The notes under the pieces are model-generated. The model had not been told where the DNA came from, searched no databases, and saw only the letters and a program-made list of their open reading frames with translations. DNA of 12,795 bases, from the UHGV virus genome UHGV-0061597, one strand, 5' to 3'. The DNA is from a virus. Position numbers and translations under genes: made by a program. This document shows positions 1-8,808 of the stretch, in pieces; position 1 is the stretch's first letter; every line of letters starts with the position of its first letter.

Positions 1-8
1 TGACTACT

Positions 9-821
9 ATGTCTCTCGGTGCACTTGGGCCAGAAAAGGCGTTTGCTGTTCAGGATAAGATGGTTGGTCGCCAGCAGGAGCAGCAAAGAATTAACGAAAC
101 CATTCGCAATAATGACATGACGAATGCGAGGGCTATTAGGGGGCAGGATCTTTCCTATAAGGCTCAAATGGCAAGACTGAATCACGACAAGTATGTGTTT
201 AAGCAGTCACAGGCGGCTCTTGAAAGAGCAGGACAACTTCAGGATATGGATGTTTTGTCTCTTAACTCACAGATAGCAGCGACGGGAATTGATCCGCTAA
301 CCGGTAAAGCTGCAACGTCAGCCAGAATGTCTCAGGCTAAGAGATGGCTTGATGGCAACAATAATTACAACAATGCGTTGATTACTGGTGAGCGAGGGAT
401 AGAGAAAATAGATTCTTTGCTTGGTAAGAAGGAGCTTGAAGGTATCGGTCGCTTCGAAGGAAGAAATATAGATGGCTTCACAAGTGCTGAAGGGCTTGCA
501 AACCGTAATGCGATAGAAGAATTAAAGTCGGGTGCGTTTGTCCAGAACGTGCAGACTATGCGAGGTATGGGTAGCCTCTCCAATGCTGAAGGACAAAAAC
601 TGGAAAACCTTATCGCGAAACTCGATATAACACAGCCTGAAGAGGTCGTCAGAAAACAGTTATCTGAAATCCGATCGCAATATTCTGTATTTCAAAAGGT
701 TGCAGCAAGGGAGGCTGAATCAATGGGATATAGTTCATCAGGTTATGACACATATGTTAGTGAGCGAAAATCAGGAAGCGACAGCAATAAGTCCGGTTTC
801 TCGTCTTTATGGGGTGATTAA
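9..821 (+). CDS. Phage virion internal/DNA-ejection protein candidate (gp20-like position); the 5' end may lie upstream of the window
   Basis: 270-aa ORF, ATG at 9 with no in-frame stop in the 8 nt before it, so the true start could be outside the window. Stop TAA 819-821 overlaps the ATG of the next gene by 1 nt (TAATG). Gln/Ala/Gly-rich, low-complexity composition. Lies immediately upstream of a large Ala/Gly-rich protein and of the sieA-equivalent and immI region, matching the P22 order 7-20-16-sieA-immI-9. Product assignment is by synteny and composition only. Confidence 0.5.
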
Positions 822-2977
822 TGGCTAAAGCATGGAAAGATGTTATCGCTTCTCCACAGTATCAGGCGTTAACTGAAGAACAGAAAGCACAGGCTCAAGC
901 GCAATATTTTGATGAGGTTGTTGCCCCTAAGGCTGGTGACAAATGGGCTGAAGCAAGAGATCAGTTTTATGCAGCATACCCTCCACCTCAGCAGCAGAAA
1001 GAAGAACCATCATTGATGCAACAAGCTGGCGATTGGCTCACTGGTGGTCAAAGTGCAGGGCAAATTGCAGAACAGGCTGGTCGTGGTCTGGTAAACATAC
1101 CATTTGACGTATTGCAGGGTGGCGCAAGTCTGATTAATGCAATCAGCCAGGGGCTTGGTGGCCCCAAGGTTTTGGATGATGTTTATCGCCCTGTCGATCG
1201 ACCTACAGACCCTTACGCGCAAGCCGGTGAAACAATTGGTGGGTATCTCCTGCCAATTGGCACAGCGGCAAAAGCTGCTGGAGCGCCAGCAAAGCTCGCT
1301 GGAGATATCGGTTCCGCAGGAAACATGATTGCAGGTTCTCTTGCTGATGCTGCAAATCAGGATGGGGACTTTGCACAAAATGCTGCCATTAACGGTGGTA
1401 TCAATATTGGTGCTCAAGGCGTTCTTTCAGGTGTCGGGCGCGTTATTGCGCCAAGGGTTTCACAGGCTCTTGGTGGTGCGGCACTGAATTCTGCTAATGA
1501 TGTTTCTAGGATGGCAAAGTCAGGTGCTGGGCGTCAGTCAATTGCCAGTCAGGCCGCTAATGTGTCCGAAGATGTAGCAAAAGCGGCTGAGTCTGCTGGA
1601 ATTGATATAAACGCATTAACACCAGGAATGCGATCTGGAAGTCGTGGAATTGCACAAGCCGAAGGGATATTGGCATCCGAACCAGGAATTGTTCAGGATG
1701 CACATACTAGGGCTTTTAGTGAAATACAGTCGAAATTCCACTCAGCACTTGATGAACTTGGTGCTGAGGCTGGATCTGCATCAGAAAAAAGTGCAGCCAT
1801 AAAACAAAGGGTTTTAGCAAGTATTGATAAAATGAAGAACTCAGAAAAGGCAGCATGGGATAGCGTACGCTCCACGATGCCTGACGCAAAGGCCAGAATG
1901 TCAAACCTGAACGCTACAATTCAGGGTGATATTTTGGCTGGTATGCCGCTAACTCCTGAGATGAAACAATTTGCATCGGCTTATGCTAAAACTGGTAAAA
2001 AAGGAATCACGTTTGATGCCATGAAGGCATGGCGAAGTAAACTTGCTGACGCTGAGCAGAAGTATATAAGGTCTGGTGAGGCAAATACGGCAAGGCGCAT
2101 GGCGGAGCTTCGTGATGCAGCAACGGAAGATATGCGCATAATGGCTCAAAATGGCGGTTTTCTTGATGACTGGCAAAAAGCTAATGATCTGTCAAAAGCA
2201 AGATTTACAGCACAAGAACAGGCTGAAGCAGCGTTTAGAAACCTTGCAACTGATCAGTTAGTCACTGATGGTATTAAAGCCTTGCAAAATTCATCAAAAA
2301 GTGGGACAGGAAAGTTTCATCAGATTATTGGCGCACTGCCAGAGTCTGAGCGATCTCCAGCAATTGCATCAATATTACAAGATGCGGTATCGCAAGGGGT
2401 GCGTGGCGGTAAATCAGAGTCTGCTGGCGTATTCCATATAGCGTCGATCCTTACGCCGCAGAATATTACTGCCATTAGCAAGCACTCGCCAGAAATGGGT
2501 AAGATTGCTAGGGCATACAGCGACCTTGCCAGAGCAGCAACCAGACCACTGCGATATGTAGAGCATACGGGGCGCTCTATACCGGCAATTAACTCTCTTG
2601 AGCAAGGACTGCCAAAAGCTGTCATGACAGTTCTCAATGCAATAGGCAATTCAACATCAGGGGCTATTGTTGGTACCACTGGTGGAGGGATTGTTGGCGG
2701 TGTTGTGGGGGCTGTTTCTGGATCTATAGCTAAAGGGACGATAGAAAAGTTAGCTGCATCCCGCAGTGGTCGTTACGCTATTGAAAAGGCTGTTCAAGAG
2801 GCAACAAAGGCAGTTAAGGTTGGGGCAAGTGATGGTGCATTAGCGGCGGCTGAACGCAGATTTATGGCAAATAAAGCTGCTGTAAAAGCGATACGTGATA
2901 CCGTCGGAAACGAAGAGTTTCAGCGCTTAGCGAGGGGTGGGATTGTGGCATCGCTAAGCGGAATGGAGCGGGAGTAA
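821..2977 (+). CDS. Phage DNA-ejection (injection) protein candidate, gp16-like by position
   Basis: 718-aa ORF translationally coupled to the upstream ORF. Ala/Gly/Gln-rich, with a C-terminal glycine-zipper-like hydrophobic stretch ([25 protein letters not shown]), as expected of membrane-interacting ejection proteins. It is the last gene before the opposite-strand cargo and immI region. The specific family is not verified. Confidence 0.55.
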
Positions 2978-3001
2978 TTAGTAATCCACGGATGGATTCG
3001 T

Positions 3002-3424
3002 TTAGCCATCGGATAGGCGCTCTTTTGCCTCTTCGATTAAATCAGCACAAATAAGAGGTAGCTCTGATGAAACAACTTCCCAGCCAGATTTTTTAACAAC
3101 TTCATTTAACCACTCTTCTCGATCGTGAGTTCCTCTTCTTTTTTCTAGGAGGAAGATTTGAGAGTAAATCTGAATGGCCTTCTCGTTTAGATAAAACGCA
3201 TATTGCCTGTTTAAAACAACATCTGCAAGTATATCAATGCCTTGTTGGGTTTTTGCCGCTACATCTGGCTCTACTCCCATACGAATAGATAAATCGCATA
3301 ACTCAACAAATGCACGCTCTTCAGCGTCGTATTTCATTTTGTAAAAATGTGAAGCCAGTTTTTGTGTTTCGGCGAGTTCTGCCCTTAATTTTTTTATCTT
3401 GCTTCTCGTTAATATACCAAACAC
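3002..3424 (-). CDS. Hypothetical protein, third gene of the minus-strand cargo cassette; start probably GTG at 3424, alternative GTG at 3487
   Basis: The ORF track gives 3002..3487 (161 aa), but its first codon is GTG and the first ATG is 50 codons in. An in-frame GTG at 3424-3422 is preceded by a strong Shine-Dalgarno on the minus strand (AAGGAGG, 5-nt spacer), giving about 140 aa. No transmembrane segment and no motif I recognise. AT-rich codon usage like the two genes upstream of it. Confidence 0.6.
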   Translation of the reverse strand: MFGILTRSKIKKLRAELAETQKLASHFYKMKYDAEERAFVELCDLSIRMGVEPDVAAKTQQGIDILADVVLNRQYAFYLNEKAIQIYSQIFLLEKRRGTHDREEWLNEVVKKSGWEVVSSELPLICADLIEEAKERLSDG

Positions 3425-3551
3425 ACCAACCTCCTTAGTTTTACGCAGGATACCAGATGGTTTGGAGTGAGATAAAGGTTTGTCCACTTTTGGCTATAGC
3501 TTTATGTATCCGTGACGGATGTAATTATCACGGATGCATAAAAATTATATT

Positions 3552-4100
3552 TTAGTGTAATCTCTGATCGTCTGAATCGTGTAAGAACTCCATGAGACTT
3601 TGAACCGGAATTGGTTCTATTGATGACAATGTGAACACAGGAATATTGAGACTTTTGCAACGCTCAAACACTCCCTTATCATGAGTCCATACCTCGTCAG
3701 CATTAATTGCTCTTGCAATTGCTATTATTTGTCTGTCAAACTTAATTTTATTTGCTGTACCTTCTGTGCTAATTTTCCTTAATTCTTTTAATGTTGGTAT
3801 CGATGCGCATTCAATAGCAGCCAACTCATCAAATGATACAGTCTCGAAGCACGATAACGATTTGATAACATTCAGTTTTTCTTGTTGGTAATCTTTATGG
3901 ATTCCAACTAAAAACTCCGCCAATACAGGAGTTGGAACGATGATTGTCCCGTTCTTGTTATCTATTCGATCAACAAGAGCTTCTGCTCTTCTTTTGGCAT
4001 CTGGAATCTCAGAACCAAGTATAGGGTCAGATAATCTATAATCGTGTTCTATATCTGATAGTAGGTATACCAGAATATTGGTATCTAAAATTACTCGCAA
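3552..4100 (-). CDS. PIN-domain (VapC-like) putative ribonuclease
   Basis: 182-aa translation starts MRVILDTNILVYLL, the typical PIN beta1 motif with the first catalytic Asp. Further acidic residues are spaced as in PIN folds (LAEF, DRQIIAIA, WTHDKG). TTG start at 4100-4098 preceded by GAGGAAG. It overlaps the stop of the upstream gene by 10 nt, which indicates translational coupling. Confidence 0.75.
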   Translation of the reverse strand: MRVILDTNILVYLLSDIEHDYRLSDPILGSEIPDAKRRAEALVDRIDNKNGTIIVPTPVLAEFLVGIHKDYQQEKLNVIKSLSCFETVSFDELAAIECASIPTLKELRKISTEGTANKIKFDRQIIAIARAINADEVWTHDKGVFERCKSLNIPVFTLSSIEPIPVQSLMEFLHDSDDQRLH

Positions 4101-4810
4101 TTTATCTTCCTCAGAGTCCTAAGGATTGAATCAACATCGCGTTCCTCGGACCACTGATCTCCAGGAACTTGCTTGATAGCATTAATAGCATCCTTGAGTG
4201 ATGATTTTTTGAGCAATACAAATGAAGTTATTTTTAGTTTCTTTAGCTCCCATTTGTTGTTCTTTTTTTCCCAGCACCCATCTCCTTTAACCCTAATATA
4301 TTTGAATAGATGGGACCCAAGAGCTGCCGCCAAATCAGGGGTTGCCTCGCACTTGAATGTTTCACCGTTGGCTCCCTCAATACGCACAGGTATTGAGTTG
4401 TCTTTTCCGCCAACACTGTATAGCCTTCCTTGAACTTCTGACGTTTTTGTTATGAGTAAAGGGATTGGCTCCTTTTTTACTCGCGGGAATGCGATAATGG
4501 TTGAGTGGTTTCGTCCGAGTAGTTTCGCTGAAAAACCATCATGTTCCAGTAAATTAACAATTTTTTGATACGCGGGTGATTTCTCTTTGGCTGAGAGAGA
4601 GGCCCTTGCTATGACAGCGTTATAACAAATATCATTATCGACCCATGCATTTAAGTCAGCCGATCCTTCACTTACACAGTCGAAGTGAACAGAATCTGCA
4701 GAACCGTATAGATCTACGAGAGCAGACATATACTTGACCAACTTAGCCATTGACAGCTGGCCAGGGGTGGTTCCGTCAAGTTTTAATGTGAGTCCATTGC
4801 TTTTTTTCAT
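4091..4810 (-). CDS. Hypothetical protein, upstream partner of the PIN nuclease (candidate sensor or antitoxin-like component)
   Basis: 239-aa ORF with ATG at 4810-4808 and stop TAA at 4093-4091, overlapping the PIN gene start. No transmembrane segment, no Walker motif, no family I recognise. Far larger than a canonical VapB antitoxin. Same orientation as mnt, 49 bp downstream of the mnt stop. Confidence 0.75.
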   Translation of the reverse strand: MKKSNGLTLKLDGTTPGQLSMAKLVKYMSALVDLYGSADSVHFDCVSEGSADLNAWVDNDICYNAVIARASLSAKEKSPAYQKIVNLLEHDGFSAKLLGRNHSTIIAFPRVKKEPIPLLITKTSEVQGRLYSVGGKDNSIPVRIEGANGETFKCEATPDLAAALGSHLFKYIRVKGDGCWEKKNNKWELKKLKITSFVLLKKSSLKDAINAIKQVPGDQWSEERDVDSILRTLRKINCE

Positions 4811-4859
4811 TTGTCATCACGCGAGCCAATATCGATATGGTTAACTGTACGTCATAAGC

Positions 4860-5114
4860 CTATAACTTACTTTTGCTATAAATATTTTTCAGCGTTTCAA
4901 AGACCATCTTCTTAACAACGTCAGATTGCTCATCCGCGACTCGCTCAGCTTCGTCTCGATAGCCTACAATTGATGATGGCTTTGAGAGAGCATCCTGAAC
5001 GATTTGTAATAACTCAGAGTTCATTGACCTTCCGTTAGCCTCTGCTCTTAATTTCAATTTTTCTCTTACTTCCAAAGGCATACGGAAGTTAAAGTGCGGA
5101 TCGTCTCTAGCCAT
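4860..5114 (-). CDS. mnt: Mnt repressor (ribbon-helix-helix, immI maintenance-of-lysogeny repressor)
   Basis: 84-aa translation MARDDPHFNFRMPLEVREKLKLRAEANGRSMNSELLQIVQDAL closely matches my memory of P22 Mnt, and its N-terminus has the same RHH motif as Arc. It is divergently oriented from arc, with the operators between them. Confidence 0.9.
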   Translation of the reverse strand: MARDDPHFNFRMPLEVREKLKLRAEANGRSMNSELLQIVQDALSKPSSIVGYRDEAERVADEQSDVVKKMVFETLKNIYSKSKL

Positions 5115-5141: not shown

Positions 5142-5162
5142 ATGATAGAAGCACTCTACTAT
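5142..5162. promoter_or_regulatory. Arc operator (Oarc), 21 bp
   Basis: ATGATAGAAGCACTCTACTAT matches the P22 arc operator sequence as I recall it (TAGA half-sites). It lies between the divergent mnt and arc genes, where Pant and Pmnt overlap. Confidence 0.75.
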
Positions 5163-5170
5163 ATTCTCAA

Positions 5171-5189
5171 TAGGTCCACGGTGGACCTA
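5171..5189. promoter_or_regulatory. Mnt operator (Omnt), a perfect inverted repeat overlapping Pant
   Basis: TAGGTCCAC-G-GTGGACCTA, 9-bp arms around one central base, seen directly. It contains the GGTCCACGGTGGACC core of the P22 mnt operator as I recall it and sits about 16 bp upstream of the arc ATG. Confidence 0.8.
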
Positions 5190-5204
5190 TATTGTGAGGT
5201 AAAT

Positions 5205-5363
5205 ATGAAAGGAATGAGCAAAATGCCGCAGTTCAATTTGCGGTGGCCTAAAGAAGTATTGGATTTGGTGCGCAAGGTAGCTGAAGAGAACGGGCGATCT
5301 GTTAACTCTGAGATTTATAAGCGAGTGATGGACAGCCTGAAGAGAGAGGGGATAACGGTATGA
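5205..5363 (+). CDS. arc: Arc repressor (ribbon-helix-helix)
   Basis: The ORF track starts at 5142, but the real start is the ATG at 5205 preceded by GAGG (5196-5199). The translation [52 protein letters not shown] (52 aa) is nearly identical to P22 Arc as I recall it. Confidence 0.92.
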   Translation: MKGMSKMPQFNLRWPKEVLDLVRKVAEENGRSVNSEIYKRVMDSLKREGITV

Positions 5364-5581
5364 GGTTTATTGAGGTTGATGAGATTGGCTATGAGAATGC
5401 ACTTGGTAGAGGTAAATCTTTAGTTAACGTTAATGGCATTGAGTCGATAAGGAGCGGTGAATTTACGGAGATCAGAATGATGTCAGGTGGAATCATTCCT
5501 TGCCGTGATTCAGTAGAGTCAATCAAAGCAAGAATGAGTGGTCAGTGGCTTTATAACTACAGTGACTTACAAAAACAGTGA
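5360..5581 (+). CDS. Hypothetical small protein (73 aa) translationally coupled to arc
   Basis: Its ATG overlaps the arc stop (ATGA at 5360-5363). A purine-rich tract AGAGAGGGG lies upstream. It fills a roughly 280-bp arc-ant gap that I recall being short in P22. No recognisable domain; coding status unverified. Confidence 0.4.
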
Positions 5582-5642
5582 AGCCCCAACTGCTGGAACA
5601 GTCGGGGCTTCGGTATCAACAAATCAGATAGGAATTATTGAT

Positions 5643-6750: not shown

Positions 6751-8808
6751 ATGACAGACATTACAGCCAATGTTGTAGTGAGTATGCCTTCGCAACTCTT
6801 CACTATGGCGCGTTCTTTTAAAGCCGTAGCCAATGGCAAAATTTATATCGGTAAAATTGACACTGACCCGGTAAATCCTGAAAACCAGATTCAGGTTTAT
6901 GTGGAGAACGAAGACGGCTCTCACGTTCCTGTTCCGCAACCAATCATCATTAATGCTGCTGGATATCCGGTATATAACGGACAGATTGCCAAATTCGTTA
7001 CTGTACAGGGCCATTCTATGGCTGTTTATGATGCGTACGGTGTGCAGCAGTTCTATTTTCCGAATGTGCTGAAGTATGACCCGGATCAGTTAAGACAAGA
7101 GTTAGCAACAGAGGGTAATGAAATACTTGTTGACGACTCCCGTATTGCAGTTAAAAGTGTTCATGTAAATTCAAAACTTAGAACACAGCACAATAAAAAC
7201 GCAGAAATAATCACGCCAAATGATTTTATATCAAATTATGACATGATATCTGCAGCTATTAACTCTGGAGAGAGTGCCGCAGTATTTAATTCCAGGTATG
7301 CATTCACAATAACAGTTGGGGAATATGGTAATTTTAAATCTATTAGTGATGCTCTAAACTCGGCTGTTGCACTGCGTCCACTATGGAAAAATGGCATTGA
7401 CTTTTGCATAATTAAAATTCTTTCCGGTTTTGTGCTCAATGAGCAAATAGAAATTTCAGCAGGATGTGACTTATCATGGATTAAAATAATATCAGAAGAC
7501 TCAGTGGTTTTCTCTGATACCAGTTTGTTTACTAAAACTGTTAGGACGTATTACGAATACAAATATTTATTTTACATTTGCGATGCAGCAAAAAGTCCTG
7601 TATTTGCTATTCAGATTGAAGAAAATAGAGATGATAGCGATGTTTGTGCATTTATTGTAACTCAAAAAGCTGAACTTAATTTCTATCCGTATTCAGGTGC
7701 TCGAAAGTTCTACGTTGGAATTCATGGTAGTTTTGGTGCAAAAATTAGTGCATATCATACCGGATGTGCTCCTGATGAGGAAAGTGTTGCTGCATATATG
7801 CCAGAAGGATATTACGTATGTGATTTTTCTTATAGCAGATACTCTTCCCTGCAACTGGTAAATAATGTCAAGGCATCAATGCCTGTAAGCAAGTTTGAAC
7901 GGTGCACAGAGAGTACGGTTGCGTCAGTTAATTGTATTTATAATGTTAAAGCAGATTTTCAGGGGTCAAGTGCAAGCTATTGTTATATAGGATGGAATGT
8001 AAGAGATGGTTCAAATGTTAATATACGCGACCATAAAACTATACATTGCTCATATCGTGGATTAACCTGCATTCATACAGCATATGTTGATGCAAGACGA
8101 CATGACGTTGAAGAAAGTGATGCAGAAACAAGTGGTAAAGTCCTTGAACCAAATATTGAAAAAGGTTTTTATGGATGTGCACTTGGTGTGCGTATTGATG
8201 GTGCGGGTTGCGTTGATGTTGCTGGTAATGATATGCGCAATTGTGGAACAGCCGTTAATGCAGACACTGGTGCTGTTATTTCAGGAAAGGCTGTAGATAT
8301 CTCAGGGGCTGAGCTGGGATTTGATTGCCATGCAGGAGCATCTGTTAATTTTCCAAGGCTATGGGGTACAGATATAAAAAAATTAATGCACCTCCAAGAT
8401 GGTGTAAGGTTTAACTCTAATATTTGTCATGTATTTGGTGCAAATCCCACAAAAGATATTAGATGGATTGATGTAGAGAGATCTGAAGCTTCTTTTATGA
8501 ATGCAACGCTGGATGCAGATTCAGGATTTATTGCCGACTGTGGTAGTAGGATAACCATTGAAGGAAGTAAAGTTAAAAACCAAACAATAAGAAGTTTTTT
8601 TGGATCACATGTGGCTATAAATAATACTGTTGCTGACAGAACTTATTCAGATATAGCCGATGTTCCGCAGTTGACTATTAGTGGAGGATCTTTTATTTCT
8701 GCTACAGGATATTCTAATTCTGACTCCAGCCCTCTTAGGTTGAGCACAACACGAAATACACTTGGAGTTGGAGGAGCCATATTTTCAACCAATGGGGAAG
8801 TTTCATGA
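6751..8808 (+). CDS. Tailspike protein: P22-like N-terminal head-binding domain fused to a divergent receptor-binding domain
   Basis: The first ~113 aa ([34 protein letters not shown] ... NVLKYDPDQ) closely match the P22 gp9 N-terminal domain as I recall it. The remaining ~570 aa show no resemblance to P22 gp9 and are Cys-rich and AT-rich. GGAG lies upstream of the ATG. 685 aa. Confidence 0.92.

Follow-up and report, generated by a model that had tools for sequence, protein, structure and literature searches.

We analysed a 12,795-nucleotide (nt) stretch of the virus genome UHGV-0061597 (hereafter, the window), in which two adjacent minus-strand genes encode a 239-amino acid (aa) protein, here called the partner, and a 182-aa PIN-domain nuclease. 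The open reading frame (ORF) table of the window lists three minus-strand ORFs in the gap between gene 16, an ejection gene that a Pfam scan assigned to the P22 gp16 type (821-2977, plus strand), and mnt, which encodes the immI maintenance repressor (4860-5114, minus strand). The latter was recognised by the Pfam families Arc (E = 6e-27) and Repressor_Mnt (E = 5e-13), and its product is 82% identical to P22 Mnt. Directly downstream of mnt and in the same orientation lies the partner gene (4091-4810, ATG start, WP_000749484.1 in RefSeq), after a 49-nt spacer (4811-4859) that holds the perfect palindrome ATATCGATAT (4829-4838) and a −10-like GATATT (4833-4828). The PIN gene follows (3552-4100, TTG start, WP_001263856.1). 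The two genes are joined at a coupling junction (4091-4112) in which a Shine-Dalgarno (SD) sequence, GAGGA (4112-4108), sits inside the 3' end of the partner gene, 7 nt before the PIN TTG (4100-4098); the partner stop codon TAA lies at 4093-4091, and the overlap spans 10 nt (4091-4100). A stem-loop on the same strand (3501-3542, arms 3501-3515 and 3528-3542) comes next, and then the third gene, ORF3, which RefSeq calls as a 140-aa protein (3002-3424, WP_000467047.1) from a GTG at 3424-3422. The sequence AAGGAGG (3436-3430) lies 5 nt before this GTG, and the longest mechanical ORF, also with a GTG start, runs over 3002-3487 and would encode 161 aa. The RefSeq annotation of Escherichia coli Ecol_AZ146, which carries a 99.9%-identical stretch, calls the same three genes, with ORF3 at 140 aa. 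The GC content is 0.36-0.43 over positions 3000-4800 compared to 0.44-0.53 in genes 20 and 16. The first-pass annotation of this DNA had described three genes co-oriented with mnt behind the last ejection gene, a 239-aa gene sharing 10 nt with a 182-aa PIN gene whose start is TTG, a palindromic intergenic site before a third gene of 140-161 aa, and a cassette richer in AT than the structural genes, and all of these features were borne out.

Next, we scanned one genome per bacterial species for the locus and recovered 23 real loci, from genera that include Pantoea, Buttiauxella, Hafnia, Pseudomonas, Marinobacter and Halomonas. An intact PIN homologue stands immediately 3' of the partner gene in 20 of them; the other three are L016, with a frameshifted PIN gene, L029, where both genes are decayed and the partner is fragmented, and L023, with the partner alone. 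The PIN copy of Kingella is truncated, and no PIN gene lacking a partner was seen in the loci examined. Distant partners, with 27-33% identity, still precede a PIN protein of the same clade on a Cupriavidus conjugative plasmid (PIN profile E-value 2e-58), a Methylobacterium plasmid (3e-49) and a Kingella phage-plasmid (6e-15, the truncated copy) and in the temperate Pseudomonas phage Ostro (3e-29), and two metagenomic members show the same arrangement. When the search was started from PIN homologues (Leclercia, Providencia and a Binatia-like contig), a partner-family gene was found upstream in all three cases. Among 5,426 complete E. coli genomes, the PIN gene occurs in 33 and the partner gene also in 33, and all the copies of both genes are full-length, single-copy and at least 99% identical. 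When the cassette was compared by megablast with 50,697 phage records, the end of gene 16 was the sole region matched, and at the protein level the phage search returned distant homologues in the Pseudomonas phages Ostro and Pacha_bin_1 only. In Pantoea latae (NZ_MWUE01000022.1) two diverged pairs (L009 and L012) lie ~12 kb apart, with partners 70% and 57% identical to that of the window. Judging from this conservation, the functional unit is the two genes, the 239-aa partner and the PIN nuclease; the three-gene cassette proposed at first does not hold, since only the pair is conserved and ORF3 is distributed independently of it.

The PIN protein matched the Pfam PIN family PF01850 well above its cut-off (E = 4.1e-10, 40.8 bits against 23.6). 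The acidic quartet formed by D6, E62, D122 and D141 is invariant in 38 PIN homologues reaching down to 29% identity, which settles favourably a check that had been named beforehand as a possible refutation of the assignment; E97 is also invariant in this set and T57 is near-invariant. An AlphaFold2 model of the protein was obtained with a predicted local distance difference test (pLDDT) value of 85 and a predicted template modelling score of 0.80. When this model was compared with PDB entries using Foldseek, the leading matches were the VapC toxins 5ecw, 3zvk, 7vwo and 4chg, and the top 10 were mostly VapC chains (E 6e-6 to 2e-5, target-normalised TM scores 0.68-0.73), the nearest structures coming from Shigella, Rickettsia and Mycobacterium tuberculosis. 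VapC is ~50 aa shorter than the window protein, which has an insertion following strand 1 and, at its C-terminus, a disordered tail. The best score of the window protein against the NCBIfam VapC equivalogs (NF047863, 27.1 bits) falls far below the cut-off of 140. These three properties indicate a distinct clade with a VapC-like core. Its predicted isoelectric point (pI) is 5.1, and the function of its PHROGs family is listed as unknown. Overall, the protein looks like a VapC-like PIN nuclease with a full acidic quartet, catalytically competent as far as alignment and model allow it to be judged.

Regarding the partner, no match was found in Pfam, NCBIfam or PADLOC, and searches of the PDB sequences with either the single sequence or a profile of 115 members returned nothing significant. 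A Pfam scan of 115 diverse homologues revealed no common family, and the PHROGs family of the protein (phrog_19868) is listed as of unknown function. The structural model (pLDDT 84) comprises three parts: an N-terminal alpha/beta domain (residues ~1-110), a beta-barrel of the OB-fold type resembling the single-stranded DNA-binding protein (SSB) and Stn1 (~118-199), and two C-terminal helices predicted with low confidence (200-239). The first-pass annotation had described the partner as belonging to no recognisable family and as having no obvious DNA-binding motif. The first statement stands for the curated libraries searched and not for the fold, and the second gives way to the predicted OB-fold. 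In the N-terminal domain, H42, G49, S50 and D91 are near-invariant in the 115 sequences (window ~4685-4538), and from this conservation the site could be ligand-binding or even catalytic; the order of its elements, beta-alpha-beta-beta-alpha-alpha-beta-beta, is ferredoxin- or RRM-like by topology only. In the barrel, G176 and W187 are invariant, W180 is near-invariant, and R173 and R182 are kept in ~88% of the same sequences, with the conserved Arg and Trp residues sitting on one hairpin. In the tail, R234 is present in 113 of the 115 sequences and W220 in 106, while R213 and D225 are found in ~78%.

The protein as a whole is basic (pI 9.15), as is its OB domain (pI 9.4), and the latter value, along with the conserved R173, R182, W180 and W187, would suit a putative binding of single-stranded nucleic acid. 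The modelled barrel is shared with SSB, PriB and Stn1-RPA32, from which the partner differs in lacking a PF00436 match, in an identity of only 10-16% in structural alignments, and in having extra N- and C-terminal modules. A Foldseek search of viral models with the partner gave partial, SSB-like matches only and no full-length analogue. When 1.84 billion cluster representatives were searched with the family profile, at least 1,558 clusters (50% identity) were recovered at E ≤ 1e-3, of which 297 reached E ≤ 1e-30; almost every one of the 150 matches listed is 220-260 aa long and aligned end to end. The three proteins of the gap appear soluble, with no membrane-spanning segment and a maximum 19-residue hydropathy of at most 1.19, and none of them hit any family of PADLOC-DB v2.0.0 at E ≤ 1. 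The profile search against described defence systems that had been recommended for this cassette, when run with that library, thus gave no match.

We then studied the signals that may govern expression of the pair. Over 41 scored loci the PIN start codon is TTG in 28, GTG in 10 and ATG in one (a decayed copy), and two further calls, CTG and CTT, are probably alignment artefacts. In 38 of these loci the spacing between the genes is either the 10-nt overlap, found in all the Enterobacterales homologues, or a gap of +1 or +2 nt, found in Pseudomonas, Marinobacter and Halomonas. The non-ATG start and the fixed, tight coupling suggest that coupled translation of the PIN nuclease at a low level has been selected for. 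Upstream of the pair, 18 of 35 distinct regions contain a TATAAT-like box (TATAAT, TATACT or CATAAT) that ends 6-7 nt before the partner ATG, and in one further region a TATAGT box stops 11 nt short of it; such boxes occur within 40 nt of the ATG at loci L004, L014-L030, L035 and L041. Because the −10 box lies 6-7 nt from the ATG and no SD sequence is present, a leaderless partner mRNA is predicted there; the lambda cI transcript made from PRM is an example of such an mRNA. In four enterobacterial loci (L009, L010, L039 and L047) a TATACT box precedes the partner gene by ~30-40 nt. In the window and its Salmonella relative the only such element is GATATT, in the spacer of 44-49 nt after mnt, and the spacer of Salmonella salamae (L033) carries GGATATTG at the position matching ATATCGATAT of the window. 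From its sequence, this ATATCGATAT/GATATT spacer may be a weak promoter of the pair itself or an operator. No terminator-like site was found between the mnt stop codon and the partner ATG, which makes read-through from Pmnt plausible.

At the other end, the arms of the window stem-loop are 15 nt long and 93% complementary, its fold has −20.7 kcal/mol (z = −5.1 when compared with shuffles), and it starts 10 nt 3' of the PIN stop codon, where P22 has its annotated mnt terminator. Canonical terminators with a GC stem and a T-run follow the PIN stop codon at L039, L047, L010, L013, L004, L035 and L049. The window hairpin is probably the 3' end of a mnt-partner-PIN transcript, as a terminator or a stabiliser.

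With these properties the pair resembles the VapBC systems, examples of which are VapBC of Shigella and Salmonella and FitAB of Neisseria, in several respects. The nuclease has the canonical four acidic residues and a model nearest to the VapC crystal structures, the partner gene is upstream and coupled through the 10-nt overlap to an effector with a weak start, and the flexible C-terminus of the partner bears an almost invariant Arg. On the other hand, the partner has 239 aa where antitoxins have ~70-100, and in place of an AbrB, ribbon-helix-helix, Phd or helix-turn-helix (HTH) domain it is predicted to have an alpha/beta domain and an OB-fold. Given this size and predicted fold, the pair is not filed as VapBC, for want of a small DNA-binding antitoxin, in agreement with the first-pass annotation, which had set it apart from canonical VapBC. 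Nevertheless, a VapC-like RNase, a partner-first gene order, a weak coupled start, decay that breaks the PIN gene, and an Arg/Trp tail are all features to be expected if a toxic nuclease is kept inactive by an excess of a partner translated together with it. Moreover, the extra 200 residues of the partner far exceed what neutralisation needs and suggest a sensing or substrate-binding role. Considering the evidence from sequence and models, we give an even chance to the reading in which the pair is a toxin-antitoxin (TA)-like module for defence or abortive infection (Abi), expressed in the lysogen, with a VapC-like PIN effector and an OB-fold partner that is obligate.

According to this reading, transcripts of the pair would arise in the lysogen at Pmnt, by read-through, at a weak promoter belonging to the pair, or at both, and would end at the 3501-3542 hairpin. 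The nuclease would be made only by coupling from the weak TTG and would remain sub-stoichiometric to the partner; the geometry behind this step is conserved and the stoichiometry is our deduction from it. The partner would bind and silence the nuclease, probably through its flexible C-terminal tail, in which R234 and W220 might occlude the acidic active site by analogy with the C-terminal Arg of the FitA and VapB antitoxins. In FitAB and VapBC complexes this Arg is inserted in the acidic pocket of the PIN domain. Going by fold, the basic OB domain and the N-terminal domain might form the sensor or substrate-binding part, with single-stranded nucleic acid as the putative ligand or else a phage protein that mimics or coats such nucleic acid. 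An infecting phage would titrate, displace or degrade the partner, the freed nuclease would cut tRNA, rRNA or mRNA, and the resulting arrest of translation would abort the infection. It is also possible, and we advance this idea tentatively, that the OB partner directly senses replication intermediates of the phage, single-stranded DNA (ssDNA) or RNA, or a phage SSB-like protein, and that the ligand withdraws the Arg/Trp tail and thereby licenses a tRNase.

The genomic setting of the pair bears on whether it is defensive. It usually lies directly downstream of a lysogeny repressor and in the same orientation, the repressor being Mnt in P22-like prophages of E. coli and Salmonella salamae, a CI-type protein with HTH and S24 domains in lambdoid prophages of Pseudomonas, in phage Ostro and in Providencia, and a Rac-type HTH protein encoded opposite YdaS/YdaT in Enterobacter and Leclercia; in Kingella a LexA-like repressor is found three genes upstream. 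The remaining surroundings include insertion sequence (IS) elements, a Fic gene and, in a P. aeruginosa prophage, an integrase fragment. Other copies are carried by conjugative and mobilisable plasmids and by non-phage chromosomal islands, and one stands beside IS1595 in the Binatia-like metagenomic contig. In prophages of the P. syringae group (L037/L038, 6177-6854) a DUF4145 gene stands between the CI repressor and the pair. DUF4145 is frequent in restriction and Abi contexts, and its interposition there suggests that cargo may be stacked behind the repressor. Well-established genes for exclusion or abortive infection are expressed in lysogens from comparable repressor-linked positions, lambda rexAB behind cI and P22 sieA being the known cases. 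The pair shares with SieA and RexAB the status of prophage-expressed cargo beside a repressor or the immI region. The first-pass annotation had placed the genes in a variable cargo slot with plausible expression in the lysogen, and this is supported by the exchange of contents among sister prophages and by the recurrence of the repressor-linked position; judged by this position, the pair is probably lysogeny-expressed cargo in a variable slot.

The same surroundings, together with the TA hallmarks seen in the order of the genes, their coupling, the weak start of the toxin gene and its VapC-like fold, could be taken to mean that the pair is a plain addiction module, in which a labile, oversized antitoxin and a stable PIN toxin stabilise the prophage or plasmid with no role in phage defence. 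The pair is indeed found on conjugative and mobilisable plasmids and beside IS elements, and CUS-3 and STEC383 hold a pair with a YafO-family toxin in the same part of the gene 16-mnt gap. However, its recurrence behind the repressors of at least four unrelated prophage types, which is the classic rexAB/sieA position, is not what addiction alone would lead us to expect, and a 26-kDa partner with three parts and a conserved OB-fold seems too elaborate for neutralisation alone. For these reasons we consider it rather unlikely that addiction is the whole function. The two roles are compatible, phage defence being a property of many type II TA systems as well.

A different relationship between the two proteins is illustrated by DS-5 (PN12), a two-gene system of E. 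coli reported with DefensePredictor (DeWeirdt, Mahoney & Laub, Science 2026, PMC13092281), whose PIN gene is also the downstream one. Its defence was lost upon mutation of the catalytic PIN residues D7 and E44, deletion of its non-PIN partner gene abolished defence without unleashing unrestrained toxicity, and the study describes it as not acting like a TA system (PMC13092281). By analogy, the window pair could be an obligate two-component defence that is not TA, in which the PIN nuclease is harmless alone and the OB protein activates it or recruits phage RNA or ssDNA. The OB domain, which is basic and bears conserved Arg and Trp on a single hairpin, would suit this role. From general knowledge, eukaryotic PIN nucleases commonly act with RNA-binding modules of the OB, S1 or CSD type, as in Dis3/Rrp44. 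Arguing the other way, the conserved non-ATG start and tight coupling point to a low PIN dosage, and in decayed loci it is always the PIN gene that is broken or absent, with the partner, intact or fragmented, remaining. Both of these observations suggest that the nuclease is harmful when unpartnered.

The likeness to DS-5 is furthermore limited to the gene order, in which the gene for a PIN nuclease follows that for an uncharacterised protein. DS-5A, to which the partner is unrelated (hhalign probability 0.1%), has 166 aa and is Zn-ribbon-like (DUF5830/AcrIF4-like), and DS-5B is a 376-aa PIN protein of which 12 N-terminal columns, corresponding to the first PIN motif, align with the window nuclease (probability 5.5%). 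On balance we find a DS-5-like mode of action doubtful for this pair. Identity with the validated PIN systems of DefensePredictor was examined and rejected: DS-5A and DS-5B are unrelated to the window proteins, and 'PIN2' is a pair of ImmA and DUF4411. The sequences of the window proteins are also absent from the table of cloned systems of that study (PMC13092281). A second tested anti-phage candidate, HEC-03 (Payne et al. 2024, bioRxiv 10.1101/2024.01.29.577857), combines a VapC-like PIN protein with an ABC ATPase; it resembles the window pair in having a VapC-like PIN effector with a non-VapB partner and differs in the nature of the latter, since the window partner has no match to an ATPase family and is predicted to have an OB-fold, not a P-loop.

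The nuclease itself has been singled out before. Among the entries of Table S10 of the DefensePredictor study that are listed, WP_001263856.1, which is identical to the window PIN apart from the translation of the start codon, appears as 'Predicted novel defense gene', with values of 6.81, 1.46, 3.95 and 8.01 (PMC13092281). Our literature search found no mention of either RefSeq accession in the main text of the papers covered.

Several points weigh against a TA-like defence module. The DefensePredictor score is a prediction, and the partner accession was not found among the Table S10 entries listed (PMC13092281). The TA relation cannot be assumed for PIN pairs in general, because deletion of the DS-5 partner was not toxic (PMC13092281), and the literature searched contained no report of a toxicity, neutralisation or phage-protection phenotype for this pair. 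Binding of nucleic acid by the partner is inferred from its modelled fold. OB-folds serve protein-protein contacts too. The plugging of the active site by the tail is proposed from analogy and conservation, and termination at the window hairpin is uncertain because it is not followed by a U-tract. Finally, plain addiction would account just as well for the presence of the pair on plasmids and beside IS elements.

We also considered whether the nuclease might benefit the phage itself, as a regulatory RNase that processes phage or host transcripts and tunes immI, lysogeny or induction with no action on other phages. The pair is probably co-transcribed with mnt and lies beside the RNA-regulated arc-ant-sar switch, in line with such a role. 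It is found, however, behind unrelated repressors of the CI and Rac types, on plasmids, in chromosomal islands and beside IS1595, and sister P22-like prophages do without it altogether, which leaves this function very improbable.

We next turned to ORF3 and to the organisation of the gene 16-mnt gap. ORF3 had no match in Pfam, NCBIfam or PADLOC, and among 5.8 billion proteins its homologues formed only three clusters, with identities of 86% or more, and every source named for them is E. coli. Outside this species none of the loci with the pair contains ORF3, and it is present without the pair in STEC383 (an identical WP_000467047.1) and in M15 (a variant). In KE40 the pair is followed by a 109-aa gene whose product is 50% identical to that of hkcB of phage CUS-3, and in PEC011 by no gene. 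A role of ORF3 as a third component was ruled out by these distributions. Based on this comparison, ORF3 is a separate, independently mobile passenger, a cargo gene that occupies the part of the gap next to gene 16.

In the annotated P22 genome, gene 16 is followed by sieA, which has a promoter to itself, then by the mnt terminator, orf59a and finally mnt. This order and the contents of the sister prophages indicate that the gap has two sub-slots that are swapped independently. The mnt-proximal one contains orf59a in P22, a 199-aa protein and a YafO-like toxin as a pair in CUS-3 and STEC383, a ClpP-like protease in M15 and the OB/PIN pair in the window. The gene 16-proximal one contains sieA in P22, hkcB in CUS-3 and KE40, and ORF3 in the window, STEC383 and M15, and it is empty in PEC011. 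The first-pass annotation had assigned the whole cassette to the slot equivalent to that of sieA. This is correct for ORF3, which adjoins gene 16 as sieA does, and not for the pair, which sits in the mnt-proximal (orf59a) sub-slot. The suggestion of a SieA-like exclusion protein was not upheld: SieA is a multi-pass membrane protein and the three proteins of the window are soluble by hydropathy, with no sequence similarity to it. ORF3 in particular was rejected as a SieA homologue (BLASTP E = 15 against P22 SieA).

When the window is aligned with other complete genomes of E. coli, homology ends at ~3418-3422, which is the start codon of ORF3. The motif CTAAGGAGGTTGGT(G/A)TG, made of an SD sequence and a start codon, is found 3' of the PIN gene both in the window (3422-3436, at the ORF3 start) and in Salmonella salamae (L033, ~8300-8320), where a different short ORF starts at it. 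The break of homology among the E. coli prophages exactly at that start codon suggests a recombination joint. STEC383 and M15 also carry a plus-strand gene with a P63C domain in the gene 16-mnt gap.

Beyond mnt, the Pfam scan recognised Arc, a KilA-N/P22_AR antirepressor and a head-binding tailspike. The window comes from a P22-like prophage of E. coli, with an immI region and tailspike of the P22 type. The arc gene (5142-5363, plus strand) was called mechanically as 73 aa from the ATG at 5142; the true start is probably the ATG at 5205, since the Arc domain begins at residue 25 and RefSeq Arc has 52 aa. Upstream of it lie a divergent Pant/Pmnt promoter pair, with 11 of 12 and 10 of 12 consensus matches, and the palindrome ATAGGTCCAC/GTGGACCTAT (5170-5190). 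The sar antisense RNA (5577-5641, minus strand; Rfam RF00262, 59.6 bits) overlaps the antirepressor gene at its start and a 73-aa ORF (5360-5581) at its 3' end, and its presence at those gene boundaries indicates an intact immI switch in the window prophage. A type III, toxIN-like RNA antitoxin was considered for the pair and discarded, as no tandem repeats were found and sar is the only Rfam match in the window. In the product of the tailspike gene (6751-8808, plus strand), residues 1-113 form a P22 head-binding domain; the part of the gene for the body beyond it is markedly poor in GC (0.35 over ~7050-7800), and sister prophages have different tailspikes (2.1-2.7 kb), from which we deduce that the receptor-binding module is swapped. 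On the other side of gene 16, the ejection gene equivalent to gene 20 is split by ISEc52 in Ecol_AZ146 (L001, 2253-3422) and uninterrupted in the window (1-820).

What is new here is a widespread, uncatalogued family of partners beside a PIN effector; the pair itself is best classed in a known category, that of PIN-based TA-like or defence pairs, and has already been flagged by one machine-learning screen. The category would not surprise specialists, and the system is easy to test. If the pair protects lysogens, it would be an easily cloned addition of 1.3 kb to the small set of PIN-based anti-phage defences, and to our knowledge no OB-fold partner has been described before for a defence of this kind. 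For its cloning, the TTG or GTG start and the geometry of the leaderless promoter matter. The map of two sub-slots in the gene 16-mnt hotspot of P22-like phages aids the mining of further cargo. The pair is present in clinically important E. coli, including ST131 genomes, where it may influence the host range of therapeutic phages. A function would moreover follow for a large protein family of at least 1,558 clusters that lies outside all curated libraries, and, should the partner prove to be a sensor, the pair would represent a new sensor-effector family of at least 1,500 clusters across the Proteobacteria, placed under the repressors of several temperate lineages.

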